Below are positions 15,900 to 24,606 of a stretch of 64,000 nt of DNA, piece after piece (the first letter of the stretch is position 1; the number at the start of each line of letters is the position of its first letter). The DNA is from an uncultured Candidatus Poseidoniales archaeon (lineage in GTDB: Archaea > Thermoplasmatota > Poseidoniia > Poseidoniales > Poseidoniaceae), in NCBI GenBank assembly GCA_905182185.1, contig CAJJAP010000004.1, positions 5,773 to 69,772 of the forward strand, written 5' to 3'. The position numbers and the translations under genes were made by a program. The notes beneath the pieces are model-generated. The model was not told the DNA's origin. It made no database searches and saw only the letters and a list, made by a program, of their open reading frames with translations.

Positions 15900-16811
15900 T
15901 CAACTACCAATTCCAGATAGCAATGTTACGACTCTAATCGAATCGTGTAAGTCATCACTCACTCTTGCTCCGAGAATTACTTGGGCATCAACATCCAGCG
16001 CAGCAGTAAACATGCTCGCAACTGTTTCGACTTGACCAATGGTCATCCCTTGACCACCCTCGATTTGAATTAAACAACCCTTAGCACCACTGACATCTAA
16101 TTCTGCCAAAGGTGCCATCATCGCCGATTTCAAAATCTCTTCCGGTTCATCTGCCCTTCCTACACCGACTAGCATAGTGGCTCCACCTTCGGCATCAACA
16201 ATTGCCCTTAGATCCATTAAATCCAAATTGATTAAGCCCATTCTTAGTAGAGTCCTGACTAAACCATCTACTAAATCTTCAATCCATTCAGCACCCATCT
16301 GCCATGCTGTACCCTTTTCTCTCGCTTGTCTTGCAAGTCTTTCAAGTGACAATTGTACTGTAATATGTGCATTGCTTTGTAAACGTTCAAGTCCTTCAGC
16401 AGCGATTTTCGCTCGTGTCTCTTGTATTTCGAAAGGTAATGCTGCCACCGACAATACGACCGCCCCAGATTGCCGCGCTTGTCGGGCAAATTCATGAGCT
16501 GCTCCCGTACCAGAGCCGCCGCCCAATCCGACTAGCAAAACAACCAATTCAACATCCTCTAAGATCGTTCTAGCAAGAGGTGCGAGCCCCCTCATTCGTT
16601 GTTCTGCCAAAGGAGGTAAAGCAGCACAACCGACTGAATCTAATGTATGTCCTAAGCGCAATACATGGGCCGAGTCACAACCTGTTAAACTAGAATCATC
16701 AGCATCAATAAGAACTAAGTCAGCGCCTCTTCCACACTTTTCATAAGCTCTTTTTGCCCAAGCACAACCTAAACCACCAACACCGGCAATTAGGATTTGT
16801 GAGGCTTCCAT
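15900..16811 (-). CDS. Divergent FtsZ/tubulin-family GTPase
   Basis: IAGVGGLG, IDAD, LGGGSGTG, LPF, GLINLDLMDL, C-terminal VILGA..IRVVTLLSGI. Confidence 0.85.
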   Translation of the reverse strand: MEASQILIAGVGGLGCAWAKRAYEKCGRGADLVLIDADDSSLTGCDSAHVLRLGHTLDSVGCAALPPLAEQRMRGLAPLARTILEDVELVVLLVGLGGGSGTGAAHEFARQARQSGAVVLSVAALPFEIQETRAKIAAEGLERLQSNAHITVQLSLERLARQAREKGTAWQMGAEWIEDLVDGLVRTLLRMGLINLDLMDLRAIVDAEGGATMLVGVGRADEPEEILKSAMMAPLAELDVSGAKGCLIQIEGGQGMTIGQVETVASMFTAALDVDAQVILGARVSDDLHDSIRVVTLLSGIGS

Positions 16812-16868
16812 CGACCTAATGGTGGCGATGAACCTCAATGAACTTTGGCTGTAGATATTTTCTTAATC

Positions 16869-17168
16869 CTACTCAACATAACGAAGATAACGCCTTCTTG
16901 CATCTCTCGCCCATGCGTTATCTGGCTCTAGTTCTAAAACCAAATCATAATACTTTATTGCATTCTCAAATTCGGAGAGGTGACGTCCATACAGATGGCC
17001 GAGATTGGATAGGACTGGGATGCAGCCTTCTTCCCCCTCTAACATCTTGAGCAGTAATTCTTCCGCAGCGCCAAGATGATTTTTCACCATCAACTCTTCT
17101 GCTTTATCGAGTTGTTCCAATTGTTCAGAGCTCAAATCGTAAGTATTTTCGAAGGTATGGCTTGACAT
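16869..17168 (-). CDS. Small TPR-repeat protein
   Basis: VLSNLGHLY..AIKYYDLVLELEPDNAWA matches the TPR consensus. Confidence 0.75.
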   Translation of the reverse strand: MSSHTFENTYDLSSEQLEQLDKAEELMVKNHLGAAEELLLKMLEGEEGCIPVLSNLGHLYGRHLSEFENAIKYYDLVLELEPDNAWARDARRRYLRYVE

Positions 17169-17401
17169 TCACTTCACCTTTCGTGTCCACGAGTAGGTAG
17201 TCAATCAAACCTTTCATTGCTAGACTCAACAATATTGTAAAAAATGGAAGATTTAACATTCCCAGAAGATTAAATTTCATAGGAATTACCCCCTATTATA
17301 CGGATATTCAAAACGCAACACTGCGAGTCATTTATCCATCACAATTGCAAGCAATGTTTAAGGGGTCCACCCAAGTCGCTAAGAACATCTTGGGTGCTGC
17401 T

Positions 17402-18217
17402 ATGCGAGTTGGTTCTTTTTCTACGAGAATTACCCTTCTTTTGGGGCTGGTAGGGCTATTGCTACTTCCGAGCCTTGCAACATCATATCACACCGGCATT
17501 GGAGGAGAACAATCCAATGCTGGAGAGACTATTGATGATGTGGCAAAGCAAGGCTGCTTATGCCATAATGGCGCAGCTGATAATTCGATTCAGGTAATTC
17601 TTGACAAAGTCCCATATGCTTGGAATGCTGGCGACACATATGAATTCAACTTGCAACTAATCGGCGGACCTGCTGGCGGAATTTATACCGCTGGATTTTC
17701 AATGCGCACTAGTGCAGGCGAACTATCCGGCACAGACCTACAAAACTGGGAAGAAGACGTGACAACACTCACTCATACCGACGCATCTGCAAGCAAAGAT
17801 GACCGTTCGTGGCTTTTGACATGGACCGCTCCTGCTGCGGGAGAAGGTAGCGTTAATTTCTGGATTACTGGGAATTCGGTTTCAGGCGAGGGACTCCCTG
17901 GTGAAGATGACAAGTGGAATCAATTATTATTCGCCCTTCAGGAAGGAGATGCAGATAGTATCGCCCTTGGAACAAGAACTTTGTTTGCTGGTGATGGAAA
18001 TGTTAGCCCTCCTGCACCCTCTTCACATGGAGTCGATCTACACAGCATGGGAGCCCCGCTAAGAGCGCACTGGCTCGGATTACTCGGATTTGGCGCTGTA
18101 ATCATTGTAATAATATTCTCAGGCCTAATGCTAAGATATGGATTCTCCACCTCCTACAAGGGACGTAGCAATGCTCTACGTCTCCGCTACAAATTGATGC
18201 AGAGAGGTGACCAGTGA
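17402..18217 (+). CDS. Membrane-anchored Reeler/choice-of-anchor-V-like protein with CxCH motif
   Basis: Signal peptide, GCLCH, beta-sandwich-type motifs (WTAPAAGEGSVNFWITGNSV), C-terminal TM; first gene of the respiratory operon. Confidence 0.6.
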   Translation: MRVGSFSTRITLLLGLVGLLLLPSLATSYHTGIGGEQSNAGETIDDVAKQGCLCHNGAADNSIQVILDKVPYAWNAGDTYEFNLQLIGGPAGGIYTAGFSMRTSAGELSGTDLQNWEEDVTTLTHTDASASKDDRSWLLTWTAPAAGEGSVNFWITGNSVSGEGLPGEDDKWNQLLFALQEGDADSIALGTRTLFAGDGNVSPPAPSSHGVDLHSMGAPLRAHWLGLLGFGAVIIVIIFSGLMLRYGFSTSYKGRSNALRLRYKLMQRGDQ

Positions 18218-18660
18218 TGGATGATACAATCACGACCCTGTTGCGAGGTGTTGCAAAAGGAAACATCAGTATCGCTGATGCGAGAACTGCTTTGGAAAGT
18301 GCTTCACTGACTGAAGAACAGATGCAGAAAGCAATCGACCATGGAGTATTCAATCCTGCCGAACTGGGATCCATCGTCAGTGCAACCCTAGCCCCTTCAG
18401 GCGCATCACATCTGGCAATGTTCTTCTTCGTCTGGGGATTATTTTGGAGTTGCTACTGGTCTTTTTCATTAATCTATGGACTACTACATGGTTGGGACCA
18501 ACAACAATTATCATTCCATTTAGCCATGACATTAACGACCATAATAATGATGGGAATAATCTACCTAAAATATATCCTACCTGACACTATTATCGTCAAA
18601 TATGCTATGAATAAGTTCGTAACTGAGCATAAAAAGGACTGGAAGGAGTACAACTGGTGA
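18217..18660 (+). CDS. Hypothetical 2-TM protein in the Rieske/cytochrome b operon
   Basis: 148-aa ORF abutting both neighbours; two hydrophobic helices. Confidence 0.65.
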   Translation: MDDTITTLLRGVAKGNISIADARTALESASLTEEQMQKAIDHGVFNPAELGSIVSATLAPSGASHLAMFFFVWGLFWSCYWSFSLIYGLLHGWDQQQLSFHLAMTLTTIIMMGIIYLKYILPDTIIVKYAMNKFVTEHKKDWKEYNW

Positions 18661-18665
18661 TTATT

Positions 18666-19514
18666 ATGGCTCGCGAATACGAACTCAAACCGGCACCAAG
18701 TGGTGAACAATCTTCTACAAAAACAGCAGGAGATTCATTAATCAATAGACGCCAATTCCTTAGTTATGGATTCAATACTGCCACAGGCGTACTAGCGGCT
18801 TCACTGGGAGTTCTTGGTTTCGCATCCCTATTGCTGCCACCTGGCGGTAGCACCGGTGGCGACCTTGCTGCAAAATACTGGGCTAAGGGTCGTGAAGATG
18901 AGGCATGGTATGGAGCAATGCATGAACAAGTAATGAAGAAATCTGATTTCGTTGCTGAGGCAGCAAAGAGCTCCACCGGAACATCAGGAGCGGCTGGTGT
19001 TTGGAACGGAGTTCCAATAGTAGTAACATATGTAAACCATTCAAAGAATGCTGGAACCCCTTTATCAAATGGTAAAGCACGATTCCAATTCATGGAAGGA
19101 TATGATGGAACTGGAAAATATGTTGGCCATTTTGATGACTTGGCTGATGCAGACCCAAGACTATCACCCTCTGAGAATTTAGTAATGATTTTTGCAAGGT
19201 GTACACATTTGTGCTGCATCCCAGGTTGGCAATTAGTTTCTAACTCTTATACTGAAGATACATGGACTCCAGGCGGAGGTGATGATGGTGGAACAAAATT
19301 ATTCTGTATTTGCCACTCCTCACGTTTCGACCCTACTGCTTTAGAGATGAACACTAATACAAATCGTTCTAATGGTGCTAAATTCAAGTACGCTGGCATT
19401 CGCAGAGCCGGCGGCCCTGCGCCAGTAGGATTACCAATAATCCCGATTGCCATGAATGGCGATATTATTGAAGGATTACCAGATTATGTGGATTGGTACA
19501 CATTTTGCGACTGA
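18666..19514 (+). CDS. Rieske [2Fe-2S] subunit of a cytochrome bc/b6f-type complex
   Basis: Tat-like RRQFL plus TM; boxes CTHLCC and CICHSSRF; GGPAPVGLP; GGTGA RBS. Confidence 0.92.
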   Translation: MAREYELKPAPSGEQSSTKTAGDSLINRRQFLSYGFNTATGVLAASLGVLGFASLLLPPGGSTGGDLAAKYWAKGREDEAWYGAMHEQVMKKSDFVAEAAKSSTGTSGAAGVWNGVPIVVTYVNHSKNAGTPLSNGKARFQFMEGYDGTGKYVGHFDDLADADPRLSPSENLVMIFARCTHLCCIPGWQLVSNSYTEDTWTPGGGDDGGTKLFCICHSSRFDPTALEMNTNTNRSNGAKFKYAGIRRAGGPAPVGLPIIPIAMNGDIIEGLPDYVDWYTFCD

Positions 19515-19525
19515 GGTGAAATGAA

Positions 19526-20392
19526 ATGACAACAATGTTTTGGATTCTTTGGTTCTTCATCGTGTTCGTAGTGGTTCTTGTAGCATTCACCCTACGCAAG
19601 GAATCAGAAGAGATGCCTCGTAGAGACATTCTTCGTGCTGTTGAGTCAACAGGAAAAATGGGTGTGGCAGAGCGATCTTTTCTCTGGGTATTCTCTTGGC
19701 TGGATACTAGATTTAGATTACAAGACTATTGGAATATGTCGAAAGGTGCCTACTATAACATGCACAGGCAAATGCCGCTAAGTCACGCAGAAAAGTACAA
19801 ATTGAGAATCATTTGGTACTGGTACCCACTATACTGCCTCGGTGGAATCTCATTCCTATCATTCATTATCTTGGTAATTACCGGAACTGTTCTTGGAATT
19901 TATTACGTACCTGGAGGAGAAGGTGACCCTGCTCCCGCATATGCAAGTATGCAATATATCATGACCGAATTGCCATTTGGATATATCCTTCGTGCGGTTC
20001 ACCATTGGACTACTCACTTTATGGTAGCAAGTGTATTCTTACATATGTGCAGAGTTTACTTTACTGGAGCATACAGAAACCCTCGTGAATTAAACTGGCT
20101 TATTGGAGTCGCACTGATGTTCCTAACCATCTTCTTTGGCTACTCTGGATATTTACTACCTTGGGATTCCTTGGCATATGGTGCTGCTGTTATCGGAATT
20201 AACATGGCCAATTCATCACCGTTGATAGGAAAGATTGCTTCAACTGCCCTATTCGGTGGTACATCGCTAACTCCTCGAACCGTTACAAGAATGTACTTTA
20301 TTCACGTATTTATTCTCCCTGTGATTGTGACATTGTTGATCATCATTCACTTGTTTATTGTCTGGGTGCAGGGCATTGCGGAGCCACATTGA
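19526..20392 (+). CDS. petB: Cytochrome b6-type (split) cytochrome b
   Basis: YCLGG, RAVHHW..FLHMCRVY, RELNWLIG, GYLLPWD, RMYFIHVFILP..IIHL; ends after helix D. Confidence 0.95.
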   Translation: MTTMFWILWFFIVFVVVLVAFTLRKESEEMPRRDILRAVESTGKMGVAERSFLWVFSWLDTRFRLQDYWNMSKGAYYNMHRQMPLSHAEKYKLRIIWYWYPLYCLGGISFLSFIILVITGTVLGIYYVPGGEGDPAPAYASMQYIMTELPFGYILRAVHHWTTHFMVASVFLHMCRVYFTGAYRNPRELNWLIGVALMFLTIFFGYSGYLLPWDSLAYGAAVIGINMANSSPLIGKIASTALFGGTSLTPRTVTRMYFIHVFILPVIVTLLIIIHLFIVWVQGIAEPH

Positions 20393-20411: not shown

Positions 20412-23225
20412 ATGGGATTAGTAGAAAATCTTGGAAGAGTTGCTTCCTCCTACATGGATGAGAAGGAAAACTTGCAGAGCGTTGAAGGAAAGAGAGAACG
20501 TACACGAATGGGACATGCTTTTTGGCCACATGAAGTCCTCCGTGACGTACTTATCTTTTCGTTTATGGGTGCAGTATTGTTATTCTATTCTTGGCTTATA
20601 CCACCACCATTACACAGTGCTGCCGACCCATATGCTCAAGCAGGATTCGTTTTCCCTGATTGGTATGTATTATTTTCATATGGATACCTTCGTTGGGGAG
20701 AGTATCTACCGCAATTCTCCGTACCTACCGGATTCCTAGGAGATATATTTGGTCAACCTTCGTTCCCTTGGAACGCTGCATGGTGGGGAGCTGCTCTTAC
20801 TGGAATTCCAGTAGGAATACTACTACTTCCACCATTGATTGGAGGTCGTGAAAAGAGACCTGTAGAAGACCCTTGGTTTGCAAGTGCAGGCGTAGTATAT
20901 CTTGCACACGTATGGTTTATCTCTGTCTTTTCGATTAATATCTTCTTGAAACTATATGGCAATAATAGATCTGATTATTGTAAATTGGATTCTCATGGAG
21001 ACCTGTTATGTGGTGCAAGAGACCCCTGGGTTGCGGATTTGTTCAATGCCATTCCGTGGATATTGACTGGTATTTTAATATGGATTATTATTTATTTCGT
21101 GGCTAGAACAATGATGGTAAAGGCTTGGGGTGCTGGCTTCACTCCAGCACATGGCAAGAGAATTCTTGTTGGAGCATTGATGGTTTCAACTGCAATATCA
21201 GTTTCTACTTGGGATGTTTATGATGATGGTTTCTGGGATGCAAAGGGATTGCTCACCATTTCCGATTATGAGGAACTTGAAGCGATGAGGTCACAACCAG
21301 TTGATGTTCATGTTCATGATACCAATGAATTTACTGACGCACAAGGTTGGTCTACTACAGAGATAGTACCAACCACTGCTTGGCTTGATTGGAACTTATA
21401 CCAACCCGCTAGATATATTATTACTGATTTTGGCGATGCCAATGGACATCAAGATGCTGCTAATGAAATAAATGCTGCAGCGGTCACAGATTCATTCTCT
21501 GGAGAGGCTGAATGGATTGCAATAGGCTCATTTACAGTTACTGAAGATTCAACCTACTTCCCTTATGGGCATCACAAGTCTGTAGAAACAATTACCACTG
21601 ATATGAAGTGCGAGTATAGATCTAGTGAAAGAAAGATCGGTGAATTATCTACTGCCGATATGTTGACTTCAACTTTCATGGTTACCGACTCATCTGGAAA
21701 GACAGTTTCATCATTCACTGGATGTGATGGAGCAACTGTTGAACTCAAGGTTGGAACCTATGACTACCAAATGACTGTCCAAGCAACTGGTTTACTTGCT
21801 CAAAACTCCTCAATTATGACTGAAGCTTCTATGGAGATCGCTTCATTCCAACCACTATTGGTTTGGGACGAGGATGCTCACTCAAGTCTTGCTGGTACGA
21901 GTGTCAATCTTTCAAGTTCCGAGGATATGGCTCTTGGAGATGGAAAATTCGCACCTATTGAGAATCCATCGTATCATAGAAATCCTAAATCCTTAGATGC
22001 AAAACTTACCTATGCTATGTTTATTCCATGTCTAACATTCGGCGCCCTTGTATTCGTATTACTAAGATACATGGCTCGTGGATATGAGTTCGAGATGAAC
22101 AAGTGCTACGGCTGTGACCTTTGTGATGATGCTTGTCCTGTCCGCCTATTCACTGGTGGAGACAAATTAAACATCATTTACAATTCTTGGAATAACGAAG
22201 ATGATGGTGTCCCGATGTATTCATGTTTGACATGTTCTGCTTGTACTAACGCCTGTCCGCAACTTGTCGATTACGACTCTTATGTAGATATTAGGCGTGG
22301 ACTAATTGTTGGTGCATCTCAAGCAGAGATACCTCACACTGTCCTTCAAGCAGTTCTTGCTGCTGAGGCAGAGGAAGAAGCCGATGCAGACTTCATCACA
22401 ACCGAAGATTATCCAATTAATTCCAAGGTGGGATACTATCCTGGATGTGTCGACTATCTTGACCAAGAGATGGTATTTTCACATGTCAATGATGGTGAGA
22501 TGAACTTAGGAGCCTCAACAACCGCTGCTTTCACTTTGTTTGAAGAGATGGGCAACGAAGTTTCATATCTTGGAAGAGACTTCCTAAAGTGCTGTGGCCA
22601 CGATCAAAAGTGGCAAGGTCTTGATGAAGTGTTTGAAAAACTAAAGGCATACAATCAACGTAAGATTGAGGAATCTGGAATAGATACCCTCGTATCTTCT
22701 TGTGCTGAATGTTTCAGAACATTTGCTCGGGATTATGAGCTAGAAGGTATCAAGGTAATGCACACAACTGAATATCTAACCGAGCAAGGATTTGATATGA
22801 ACTTGAGTACTGAAGAGACCACTGTGACATATCATGACCCATGTAGACTAGGACGTCAAATGGGAGTCTATGATGAACCACGTGATTTGATTACAGCCGT
22901 TGAGGGTGTTAATTTGGTTGAGATGGAACATAGTGGAGAGGATGCAATGTGTTGTGGTGTTTCGAGCATGATGTCATGTAACGAAGATGCTCGTTCACTT
23001 CGTGTATCTCGTATGGAAGAAATCCGTGCTACTGGAGCAGATACGATGCTCACATCGTGTCCTAAATGTGTTGCTCACTTTGAGTGTTTGAAGTTTGAAG
23101 GTGATGAACAGTATGCAGATATTGAAATCCTTGATGTTGTTACATTCTTGGCACGACAAGTTGATGCAAAGAAATCTGAACTAGTTGCTGCAAATACTGA
23201 TGCACAAGACCAAATCAAAGCTTGA
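20412..23225 (+). CDS. Cytochrome b subunit IV (PetD-like) fused to an extracellular domain and an HdrD/GlpC-like 2x[4Fe-4S] + 2xCCG oxidoreductase
   Basis: FWPHEVLRD, AADP, FPDWY; then CYGCDLCDDACP and CLTCSACTNACP; YYPGC, CCG, SCAEC, YHDPCRLGR, CCG, SCPKC. Confidence 0.9.
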   Translation: MGLVENLGRVASSYMDEKENLQSVEGKRERTRMGHAFWPHEVLRDVLIFSFMGAVLLFYSWLIPPPLHSAADPYAQAGFVFPDWYVLFSYGYLRWGEYLPQFSVPTGFLGDIFGQPSFPWNAAWWGAALTGIPVGILLLPPLIGGREKRPVEDPWFASAGVVYLAHVWFISVFSINIFLKLYGNNRSDYCKLDSHGDLLCGARDPWVADLFNAIPWILTGILIWIIIYFVARTMMVKAWGAGFTPAHGKRILVGALMVSTAISVSTWDVYDDGFWDAKGLLTISDYEELEAMRSQPVDVHVHDTNEFTDAQGWSTTEIVPTTAWLDWNLYQPARYIITDFGDANGHQDAANEINAAAVTDSFSGEAEWIAIGSFTVTEDSTYFPYGHHKSVETITTDMKCEYRSSERKIGELSTADMLTSTFMVTDSSGKTVSSFTGCDGATVELKVGTYDYQMTVQATGLLAQNSSIMTEASMEIASFQPLLVWDEDAHSSLAGTSVNLSSSEDMALGDGKFAPIENPSYHRNPKSLDAKLTYAMFIPCLTFGALVFVLLRYMARGYEFEMNKCYGCDLCDDACPVRLFTGGDKLNIIYNSWNNEDDGVPMYSCLTCSACTNACPQLVDYDSYVDIRRGLIVGASQAEIPHTVLQAVLAAEAEEEADADFITTEDYPINSKVGYYPGCVDYLDQEMVFSHVNDGEMNLGASTTAAFTLFEEMGNEVSYLGRDFLKCCGHDQKWQGLDEVFEKLKAYNQRKIEESGIDTLVSSCAECFRTFARDYELEGIKVMHTTEYLTEQGFDMNLSTEETTVTYHDPCRLGRQMGVYDEPRDLITAVEGVNLVEMEHSGEDAMCCGVSSMMSCNEDARSLRVSRMEEIRATGADTMLTSCPKCVAHFECLKFEGDEQYADIEILDVVTFLARQVDAKKSELVAANTDAQDQIKA

Positions 23226-23269: not shown

Positions 23270-23965
23270 GTGTTGTCACTAGCGCCATTCATGAACAGAC
23301 CTGCTTTGTATGTACTTACAATCGGCATCGGTTTGTACATCAGTGCTACTGGCCTGAATGGAATCATTCCGGACCATTGGGCTGAATGGCCAGTCAATAT
23401 TTGGTGCTGGTCTGTATTTGCATATATATTCTATAAGACCACTCGAAAGGAGCGTATTGAGATGCTGACTGTGTTGGCATTTGCCACCCCAATGGAACTA
23501 TTTTTTAGTGAAGTTTGGCTAATCTATGAATACCAACGAGGACTAATGCCCCTATTCGTTCCAGTGGGTCATTATTTCTTATTTGACCTGGGCAGGATTA
23601 TCGCCAATAAGATGAGAGAGAACCTCGCCATAATTTGCTTGACCCCATTTATTCCACTTGTCGCTTATGGCGTTTATAGCGGTGGCGATACGTCTGCGTT
23701 ATTCCTCCTGATACTGGTACTCGCATTCACAAAATGGGGACCTCAACCTCGATTATATGTTGCAATGGCTTGGGCGGCCTTAGCTATGGAATTATGGGGC
23801 ACACACTTGACCAATTGGACATGGGCTAACGAAGTCCCATGGACGGGACTAACCGCTTGGAATCCACCGCTATTGGTTGGTGCATTCTATTGTGTTGGAG
23901 ATTTATTGGTCAACCTTAGTGTTGCCAAGTTTGAAAGAGAAGTGACGGCTGAGGTGGTAGTATGA
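23270..23965 (+). CDS. Hypothetical multi-pass membrane protein
   Basis: 231-aa ORF with about 7 hydrophobic segments; overlaps the ferredoxin start (ATGA). Confidence 0.7.
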   Translation: MLSLAPFMNRPALYVLTIGIGLYISATGLNGIIPDHWAEWPVNIWCWSVFAYIFYKTTRKERIEMLTVLAFATPMELFFSEVWLIYEYQRGLMPLFVPVGHYFLFDLGRIIANKMRENLAIICLTPFIPLVAYGVYSGGDTSALFLLILVLAFTKWGPQPRLYVAMAWAALAMELWGTHLTNWTWANEVPWTGLTAWNPPLLVGAFYCVGDLLVNLSVAKFEREVTAEVVV

Positions 23966-24294
23966 CCACCAGTGACGAGTTGGCGACGAGACGAGCGGCT
24001 GAGGCTCTGGCCATCCGTACATCTCTAAATCGTCAGCGCGGAGTGCAGCGCGCTAATACAAAGGGTGGTGAAGGAACTGTTGCCTATGTTACTGCAGAGA
24101 AATGTATTGGCTGCGATCAATGTACAATCGTCTGTGATGATAATGCAATTGACATATACAAAGTAGAGATGGCCAGTCAATTCATCAAAGTGGAAAGTAA
24201 TCGCAAGGCCAAGATTATTCGCGATGCTTGTACTGGCTGTAGATTGTGCGTACTCGCTTGTCCTACAGACGCTATAACAATGATTGATTTGTGA
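23962..24294 (+). CDS. 2x[4Fe-4S] dicluster ferredoxin with N-terminal extension
   Basis: CIGCDQCTIVC and CTGCRLCVLACP. Confidence 0.9.
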   Translation: MTTSDELATRRAAEALAIRTSLNRQRGVQRANTKGGEGTVAYVTAEKCIGCDQCTIVCDDNAIDIYKVEMASQFIKVESNRKAKIIRDACTGCRLCVLACPTDAITMIDL

Positions 24295-24303
24295 GGAATT
24301 ACC

Positions 24304-24606
24304 ATGACAAAAGATGATGATGAAGAAGTTCAAAGATTCGGAGGAGAATTCGGACCTTACCGCAAGGAAGGGACTTCAGGAGTAAGCCTCGGAACATTCA
24401 AAACATTGGTCTGGACTTCCAATATAGGTGGACTTTTACTATGTGCATTATCCCTTGAAATGCTATTTGTTCGTAAAATGTTTGGCTGGGGATTATTGGC
24501 CCTAATGGCTGCAGTTGCCATCGCTTTATTCCCCTCAAATTATGAAATCGTTGGAATGGGTGATGAATCTATCACCTCCACCGATGATCAAAACACACAG
24601 GATTGA
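24304..24606 (+). CDS. Small 2-TM hypothetical protein
   Basis: GAGGA RBS; two hydrophobic helices; last gene of the operon. Confidence 0.65.
   Translation: MTKDDDEEVQRFGGEFGPYRKEGTSGVSLGTFKTLVWTSNIGGLLLCALSLEMLFVRKMFGWGLLALMAAVAIALFPSNYEIVGMGDESITSTDDQNTQD

Follow-up and report, generated by a model that had tools for sequence, protein, structure and literature searches.

A Cys-x-Cys-His protein at the head of a Rieske/cytochrome b operon

The DNA analysed here is a stretch of 64,000 nucleotides (referred to below as the window) from a Marine Group II archaeon of the family Poseidoniaceae, which corresponds to Marine Group IIa. All coordinates are positions in this window unless they carry a genome label (e.g. 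G000:C5), G000 being the source genome. At positions 17402–18217 of the forward strand lies a gene for a 271 amino acid (aa) protein with the sequence Cys-x-Cys-His (CxCH), which heads the only Rieske/cytochrome b operon in this genome and which a previous examination without database searches (the sequence-only reading) had put forward as a candidate substitute for cytochrome c1 or f. Marine Group II archaea possess cytochrome b and a Rieske protein, and no canonical bc1 complex (Tully, 2019; PMC6336850). The features of the gene and its product are as follows.

17402–18217 (+), coding sequence of the CxCH Reeler/cytochrome f-like protein, 271 aa, ATG start; match to NF041895 with 81.8 bits
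17402–17485 (+), signal peptide, aa 1–28, from the sequence and an alignment of orthologues; predicted cut site
17486–17956 (+), ectodomain, aa 29–185, an N-terminal arm and a Reeler-type beta-sandwich, from the AlphaFold2 (AF2) model and fold searches
17552–17566 (+), G-C-L-C-H, aa 51–55, proposed covalent haem site, from family conservation; His55 would be the proximal ligand
17771–17779 (+), T-H125-T, candidate distal ligand, from family and orthologue conservation (compare His111 of Igni_0759; PMC4429474)
18035–18052 (+), juxtamembrane D-L-H214-S-M-G motif, specific to the Rieske-linked subfamily, His conserved
18059–18139 (+), C-terminal transmembrane (TM) anchor, aa 220–246, from model and sequence

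The open reading frame (ORF), signal peptide, GCLCH sequence, beta-sandwich and C-terminal anchor that had been described in the sequence-only reading were all confirmed from the sequence and the AF2 model. A longer alternative start for this ORF is the TTG codon at 17345. The hydrophobic N-terminus runs to PSLATS, and cleavage is predicted to occur after A-T-S and before YHTG, making Tyr29, three residues ahead of the invariant Gly32, the predicted first mature residue. The protein has no cysteines other than Cys52 and Cys54, whose context is QGCLCHNG (the peptide stretch across the motif is QGCLCHNGAADNSIQVILDK). The TM helix is followed by a short basic helix at the C-terminus. The genes downstream of the CxCH gene are listed below.

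18214–18660 (+), 148-aa membrane protein, invariably the second gene of the operon, from Pfam/ORF scans and the comparison of loci
18657–19514 (+), Rieske iron-sulfur protein (CTHLCC ... CICHSS), from family scans and the comparison of loci
19526–20392 (+), cytochrome b6-type cytochrome b, from family scans and the comparison of loci
20412–23225 (+), 937-aa protein with a membrane N-terminal part fused to a 4Fe-4S/CCG (HdrD-like) module, from family scans
23270–24606 (+), trailing genes for a 231-aa TM protein, a 2x[4Fe-4S] ferredoxin and a 100-aa TM protein, from ORF and family scans

The stop codon of the CxCH gene overlaps the start of the gene for the 148-aa protein (GTGA, 18214–18217), and the two genes are therefore translationally coupled. 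The N-terminal membrane part of the 937-aa protein, for which the family scans gave no match, may represent subunit IV, as read from its position after cytochrome b6. The earlier statement that no CxxCH cytochrome is encoded in the operon was borne out, as a search of all operon ORFs for this motif found none. Upstream of the CxCH gene and divergent from it (15900–17168 of the window, reverse strand) are a degenerate FtsZ-like gene and a tetratricopeptide repeat gene, whose position is kept in 10 of 10 Poseidoniales loci.

Family, motif conservation and fold

The CxCH protein was assigned to the NCBIfam family NF041895 (choice-of-anchor V domain), with aa 19–173 matching at 81.8 bits (E 5e-23), where the cut-off is 42 bits. 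The secretion signal and the C-terminal anchor of varying type that characterise this family are represented by its hydrophobic N-terminus and its one TM helix, and the signature G-C-x-C-H, GGF, WxxxWTAP and NxVNGDG...D-W, common to NF041895 and NF041894 (MXAN_6652 family), is likewise present. NF041895 is a family with no assigned function, whereas the subfamily of the CxCH protein possesses its own TM anchor, juxtamembrane motif and respiratory operon. A Pfam scan of the protein gave no family at E ≤ 0.1, including PF02014 (Reeler), the Apocytochr_F models and CtaG_Cox11; comparison of its sequence with those in the PDB yielded noise only, and the matches in the ESM Atlas were exclusively clusters of 'putative Reelin domain-containing protein'. 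Profile searches and the AF2 model were based upon an alignment of 113 family sequences (A1). This profile matched the reeler domain of F-spondin among the PDB sequences (E 8e-4), and hence the family is considered to be a remote relative of Reeler domains; one relative (P0270) also matches the Pfam Reeler family PF02014 (E 2e-5). The earlier description of the protein as Reeler-like is thus supported both by the profile match and by the fold described below.

In the alignment A1, the residues G51, C54, H55 and G98 were invariant, and G32, C52, P71, Y80, F99, G106, W137, W141, A143, P144, N158, V160, G162, D170 and W172 were conserved in at least 90% of the sequences. The source genome contains five paralogues of this family, all of which have G-C-x-C-H, and due to this and to the near-invariance of the same residues across the family, the occurrence of GCLCH in the protein is not a chance match. 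A full-length orthologue was present in 121 of 121 Poseidoniales genomes. Among 26 orthologues G32, G35, G-C-x-C-H, H214 and the TM helix were conserved, and His125 was retained in 25 of them and in about 90% of the family. Of the additional ligands suggested earlier in YHTG and LHSMG, only His214 is conserved; His30 varies among the orthologues and Met216 is replaced by Leu in the sister order, and both were rejected as ligands for the family.

The predicted linkage to Rieske genes was found in every locus that was compared. The order CxCH protein, TM protein, Rieske protein, cytochrome b, subunit IV/HdrD and ferredoxin was present in all 10 Poseidoniales loci, which represent three families, and in three of three loci from the sister order the same operon is headed by a 231-aa G-C-[NS]-C-H protein that shows 28% identity to the protein studied here.

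The behaviour of the motif was surveyed in 131 representative homologues whose sequences include this position. The residues C-H were kept in all 131 of them, and the number of residues between this pair and the upstream Cys was one in about 119 (~90%), two in two, four in five, five in one and six in one; in the remaining three the first Cys was lost. The two homologues with a spacing of two are P0270, the Pfam Reeler match noted above, which carries a pyrroloquinoline quinone (PQQ) dehydrogenase, and P0271, a type IX secretion system (T9SS) protein from Bacteroidetes. The known variants of the covalent haem c motif are CX3CH, CX4CH, CX15CH, CXXCK and A/FXXCH; the protein studied here has neither the canonical CXXCH nor an accepted variant, its motif being CX1CH. 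Judged from these sequences, the Cys-His pair is fixed and the first Cys can shift or be missing altogether, as is the case for covalent haem sites and not for a disulfide or a metal held by two thiolates. The possibility that Cys52 and Cys54 form only a structural disulfide, which would have spoken against the earlier proposal, is rejected because single-Cys variants exist and the His is invariant, and the variable spacing argues in the same direction. In a relative with a closed 1.6-Mb genome (G027), the gene for an 884-aa CxCH paralogue is directly followed (G027:C1:1530092–1533921, reverse strand) by that for a 392-aa exported protein with T-C-G-G-S-C-H (CX3CH), placed at the same distance from the signal peptide as the CxCH of its neighbour.

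The fold of the protein was examined by means of the AF2 model, which was searched with Foldseek and, independently, with VIA (48,161 chains). The model consists of a single sandwich with a mean pLDDT (predicted local distance difference test) of 84 and values above 90 in its core, and this confident beta-sandwich, a feature already noted in the sequence-only reading, finds its best matches among Reeler domains and cytochromes f. Foldseek placed the F-spondin reeler at the top (E 1.6e-5), and cytochrome f chains received E values of about 3e-4. Cytochromes f occupied ranks 1 and 2 in the wide VIA search (Z 10.1 and 9.3), and in a second VIA comparison they accounted for 16 of the 17 top chains, from algae, plants and cyanobacteria (Z 9.2–10.1), with Reeler domains at Z 9.1–9.2 and unrelated cohesins at 8.7 or below. 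The cytochromes f could be superposed on the model with a root mean square deviation of 2.8–3.2 Å over 131–142 residues.

The resemblance to cytochrome f (PetA), which the earlier reading had invoked, extends to several other characteristics. Both proteins have a signal peptide, one C-terminal TM anchor and a large domain that is a beta-sandwich, both carry a haem-type Cys...Cys-His site about 20 residues past the mature N-terminus, and the partners of both are a Rieske protein and a cytochrome b of the split b6 type. The large-domain fold of cytochrome f, in which an N-terminal arm lies over the haem site, is matched by the model, whose ectodomain aligns with residues 1–250 of cytochrome f minus its small domain. 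In these alignments residues 29–31 of the model are paired with residue 1 of cytochrome f, and Tyr29 lies opposite Tyr1, whose amino group provides the sixth haem ligand in cytochrome f. The two proteins differ in that the CxxCH near the mature N-terminus of cytochrome f is replaced by CxCH at aa 52–55, which lies about as far from the predicted N-terminus, and in that the small domain of cytochrome f has no counterpart, the alignment covering no more than about 140 of the 250 residues of cytochrome f. Furthermore, unlike cytochrome f, the sequence affinity of the CxCH protein is to Reeler domains and its host is a non-photosynthetic archaeon.

Haem maturation genes, redox neighbours and fusions of the domain

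The sequence-only reading had raised the presence of genes for cytochrome c maturation (Ccm) as a means of checking its proposal, and such genes were found. The source genome, which is 63% complete, encodes a CcmF/NrfE-type protein with WGGYWAWDPVE, and in relatives with complete genomes there are two PF01578 genes, one CcmF-like and one CcmC-like, together with a CcmE ending in C-P-S-K-Y, the archaeal CxxxY type. An archaeal CcmABCEF system with a CxxxY-type CcmE is functional in Methanosarcina (PMC9084895). No canonical cytochrome c was found in the source genome or in the closed genome of G027, which encodes five CxCH proteins and one CX3CH protein; in both genomes CxxCH is confined to thioredoxin-like, Fe-S and zinc-ribbon proteins. 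Since the remaining CxxCH sequences belong to such other protein classes, the CxCH proteins are the only evident substrates of the Ccm system. Most of the CxxCH matches among exported proteins are thioredoxin-like proteins with a C-x-x-C-H active site (G000:C9:33730–34344, reverse strand; G027 158781, 715316 and 1074004), which may serve in the reduction of apocytochrome or Sco thiols. In the family f29, CcmE was detected in none of 10 genomes, yet each of them has two PF01578 genes. The Reeler-like proteins that fall below the threshold in G306 and G272, two genomes negative for PF01578, are devoid of any Cys-His.

In the Thermoplasmatota family f19, the weak matches to the family are proteins of 730–820 aa with a canonical A-N-C-x-S-C-H-S-S. 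These genomes contain a unit (L304:6130–10083; also L305 and L306) made up, in this order, of the genes for the Reeler-like CxxCH protein and a 410-aa protein and a Cytochrom_C_asm gene. The 410-aa protein has a signal peptide, CxxCH and a TM module with four His that is weakly of b type, and the Cytochrom_C_asm protein is short, has the WWD motif WGSFWSWDPKE and in some genomes contains an in-frame TGA.

In the source genome, oxidase subunit I (COX1) also carries a CxCH domain as an N-terminal fusion. The oxidase operon in question (G000:C5:89005–95461; L009:5005–11461) comprises COX2, the COX1 fusion, a long COX3, COX4, SCO1 and a Cys-rich anchored protein of 187 aa, and in the fusion the choice-of-anchor V CxCH domain is N-terminal and accompanied by an additional TM helix. 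COX2, which has a long insertion, retains the CuA motif CAEYCGLNHAKM, and an external electron donor is therefore needed. Other fusion partners, drawn from long sequences among the family representatives, were COX1 (P0200, P0252), a plastocyanin domain (P0173), PQQ glucose/sorbosone dehydrogenase (P0270) and DUF4079 (P0264), which we take to be a cytochrome b561-like membrane module. In G136 (family f18; L160:605–11052), one choice-of-anchor V gene follows a multicopper oxidase gene in the same operon and another follows an NrfC-like gene and NrfD; ccmC, ccmF and a cytochrome with 13 CxxCH sequences (13-haem) lie within 10 kb of the choice-of-anchor V genes in this genome.

The premise that no other outer-side electron acceptor is available was too strong, since the source genome has, at another locus (C5:13949–14461), a gene for an anchored plastocyanin-like protein, which possesses a signal peptide and a TM helix at its C-terminus. 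In the same region (G000:C5:6998–14461; L010), a CcmF-like gene (856 aa) is located a few kb from this anchored plastocyanin/halocyanin-like gene, and the genes between them, whose leading residues resemble those of geranylgeranyl reductase, UbiD and UbiA, may make this a small respiratory/quinone neighbourhood. About 860 bases past the end of the window (G000:C4:70631–72781; L013) is the gene for a 716-aa paralogue with GCTCH, in which the domain is followed by repeats, about ten D-x-D-x-D-G-V-G-D-N repeats of the calcium-binding type, a TM helix and a Q/P-rich tail.

Proposed function and alternative explanations

These results moderately favour the view that the Rieske/cytochrome b6 complex of Marine Group II includes the CxCH protein as a new subunit of the c type, which resembles cytochrome f/c1 and carries a predicted haem. 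In the mechanism that we propose, every step after export is a prediction. The protein would be exported and its signal peptide cleaved before Tyr29, and haem would be attached covalently at Cys52-x-Cys54-His55 by the archaeal Ccm system (CcmC, CcmE with CxxxY and CcmF). The proximal ligand of this haem would be His55; the sixth would be His125 or the N-terminus created near Tyr29 by cleavage, the latter being the arrangement in cytochrome f. The TM helix and the H214 motif would anchor the protein beside the Rieske protein and cytochrome b6, where it may accept an electron from the Rieske cluster as a third, outward-facing redox subunit in place of cytochrome f/c1. From there the electron could move to the anchored plastocyanin-like protein, to the COX1-fused CxCH domain or to both, and further to CuA and O2.

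Several known systems resemble parts of this scheme. Organisms that have no outer membrane employ tethered or fused cytochrome c domains in their caa3 oxidases, in the b6c complex of Bacillus and in the actinobacterial bcc-aa3 supercomplex, and similarly, one copy of the domain described here heads complex III and another resides on COX1. It differs from these carriers in being a beta-sandwich rather than a class I cytochrome c, in its motif and in its fusion to subunit I and not to subunit II or IV. In Sulfolobus, cytochrome c1 is replaced by CbsA (cytochrome b558/566), an exported, C-terminally anchored and mostly beta haemoprotein encoded in cbsAB-soxLN. The gene for CbsA likewise comes first, followed by those for a small hydrophobic protein, a Rieske protein and cytochrome b; the haem of CbsA is, however, a non-covalent haem b, and the likeness is one of gene order, no sequence relation having appeared in general family scans. 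Lastly, Reeler-fold monohaem cytochromes c (Igni_0759 and Igni_1052) have been predicted in the Desulfurococcales, in Ignicoccus (Kletzin et al., 2015; PMC4429474). These proteins, which were modelled on the reelin-N domain of F-spondin, are exported, possess an N-terminal Cys...Cys-His and a conserved downstream His, and in some cases have a C-terminal TM helix (PMC4429474). In contrast to the protein studied here they contain canonical CxxCH and were not reported as Rieske/cytochrome b subunits; their haem is likewise predicted, and the two groups are likened here by description.

A number of observations weigh against a haem-carrying role of this kind. CxCH is not known to bind haem c. The Z scores of about 10 obtained with cytochromes f exceed those of unrelated beta-sandwiches by 1–1.5 only, which is a modest margin. 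When 75 cyanobacterial petA genes, collected by means of a degenerate GRIVCANCHLA pattern, were compared with the family alignment using hhalign, the probability was 3.5% (P 0.012), indicating no homology at the sequence level, and the signal peptide, C-H and the TM helix alone lined up. Because of this low probability the likeness to cytochrome f is regarded as architectural and homology is not claimed. In a survey of 301 genomes, PF01578 was detected in 101 of the 102 Thermoplasmatota genomes with a domain match over the cut-off and in about 18% of the 176 Thermoplasmatota genomes with no domain match. This association of the domain with Ccm genes speaks for haem, but phylogeny and an aerobic lifestyle are confounding factors. 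The exception was a genome from family f44 (G246; a single contig of 3.6 Mb), which encodes CX3CH and CxCH proteins, one family member in it also having CX5CH, shows no PF01578 match (L308, L313) and may be a counterexample to the link with Ccm. Furthermore, the family domain also heads long adhesin-like surface proteins, and the anchored plastocyanin could accept electrons from the Rieske protein directly, as has been proposed for halocyanin in the haloarchaea.

The earlier reading had allowed for either haem or copper as the cofactor of a protein accepting electrons from the Rieske protein; of these, haem is favoured as the predicted cofactor and copper appears less likely. That the Cys-x-Cys-His binds Cu(I) or Fe, the protein being a chaperone for respiratory complexes (as are Cox11, Sco and PCuAC) or a metal-centred carrier, is in our opinion quite unlikely, even though a CxC on a membrane-anchored beta-sandwich is reminiscent of Cox11, the COX1 fusion of the domain shares its operon with SCO1, a multicopper oxidase adjoins the domain in G136, and copper proteins of the YcnI type are among the weak fold matches (Z 6.4). 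A site formed by two thiolates should not tolerate Cys spacings of 1–6 or the loss of the first Cys with C-H invariant, a Rieske/cytochrome b complex requires no copper, a separate SCO1 is already encoded, and the relatives with canonical CxxCH adjoin haem-handling genes. The protein also shows no Pfam or NCBIfam match to the Cox11, Sco or cupredoxin families. Cox11 has a CFCF motif and an N-terminal anchor, whereas here the anchor is C-terminal and the motif GCxCH has an invariant His; nor does the protein match the family of cupredoxins and halocyanins, whose ligands have the form H...C-x(n)-H-x(n)-M. A Cox11-like copper chaperone was ranked low because of the missing family match and the variable Cys spacing. 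It is unlikely, too, that the protein is a non-redox accessory or structural subunit, such as an assembly factor, an S-layer or surface tether or a docking platform for plastocyanin, in which the Cys residues are structural or form a redox-regulatory CxC disulfide. The Reeler domains of animals are binding modules, members of this family head long surface proteins with immunoglobulin-like, CARDB and calcium-repeat regions, 'choice-of-anchor' families typically consist of surface proteins, and the CxCH protein diverges faster than cytochrome b (~50–58% versus ~82% identity). However, a conserved disulfide is excluded by the single-Cys variants, and such a role would leave unexplained the invariant His, the repeated fusions and operons specifically with redox modules, and the link to Ccm together with the want of other Ccm substrates.

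A further explanation accepts the haem and places it outside the output of the Q-cycle, in a module for extracellular electron transfer or for the handling of haem or iron that is merely co-transcribed, with plastocyanin oxidising the Rieske protein directly. An anchored plastocyanin-like protein is encoded in the source genome, and several paralogues per genome occur in other contexts. Nevertheless, we consider this explanation very unlikely, as the first place in the operon and the translational coupling are conserved over two orders, the Rieske-linked subfamily is set apart by a conserved juxtamembrane motif and a TM helix, and the architecture is that of cytochrome f.

The interpretation of the CxCH protein as a c-type subunit of the Rieske/cytochrome b6 complex thus remains the one that we prefer. 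What would be new in it is the motif, CxCH, of a lineage-specific third subunit of Rieske/cytochrome b complexes; a search of the literature returned nothing on the choice-of-anchor V family, on haem binding by CxCH or on a link between Reeler domains and cytochrome f. A broader proposal, which we regard as improbable, is that CxCH is a covalent haem c motif that occurs in nature, has so far gone unrecognised and is matured by archaeal Ccm, and that Reeler-fold cytochromes are the stock that gave rise to cytochrome f. According to it, a beta-sandwich cytochrome with an N-terminal ligand and a C-terminal anchor would already have been paired with a b6-type complex outside photosynthesis.

Almost no cytochromes c were counted in the Thermoplasmata in an earlier census (Kletzin et al., 2015; PMC4429474), which can be expected to have missed CxCH because it was based upon patterns for haem c attachment sites. 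If haem is bound by the proteins described here, CxCH would extend the set of covalent haem motifs, and censuses restricted to CxxCH would have missed a widespread cytochrome family in both Archaea and Bacteria. The origin of cytochrome f is unexplained, and a cytochrome f-like architecture beside a b6-type cytochrome b also gives a starting point for tracing it. Marine Group II archaea rank among the most numerous microorganisms in ocean surface waters, and the outlet of their complex III has been missing from genome surveys. The CxCH protein provides a concrete candidate for this missing subunit, and its sister domain fused to COX1 would be the other end of the wire.

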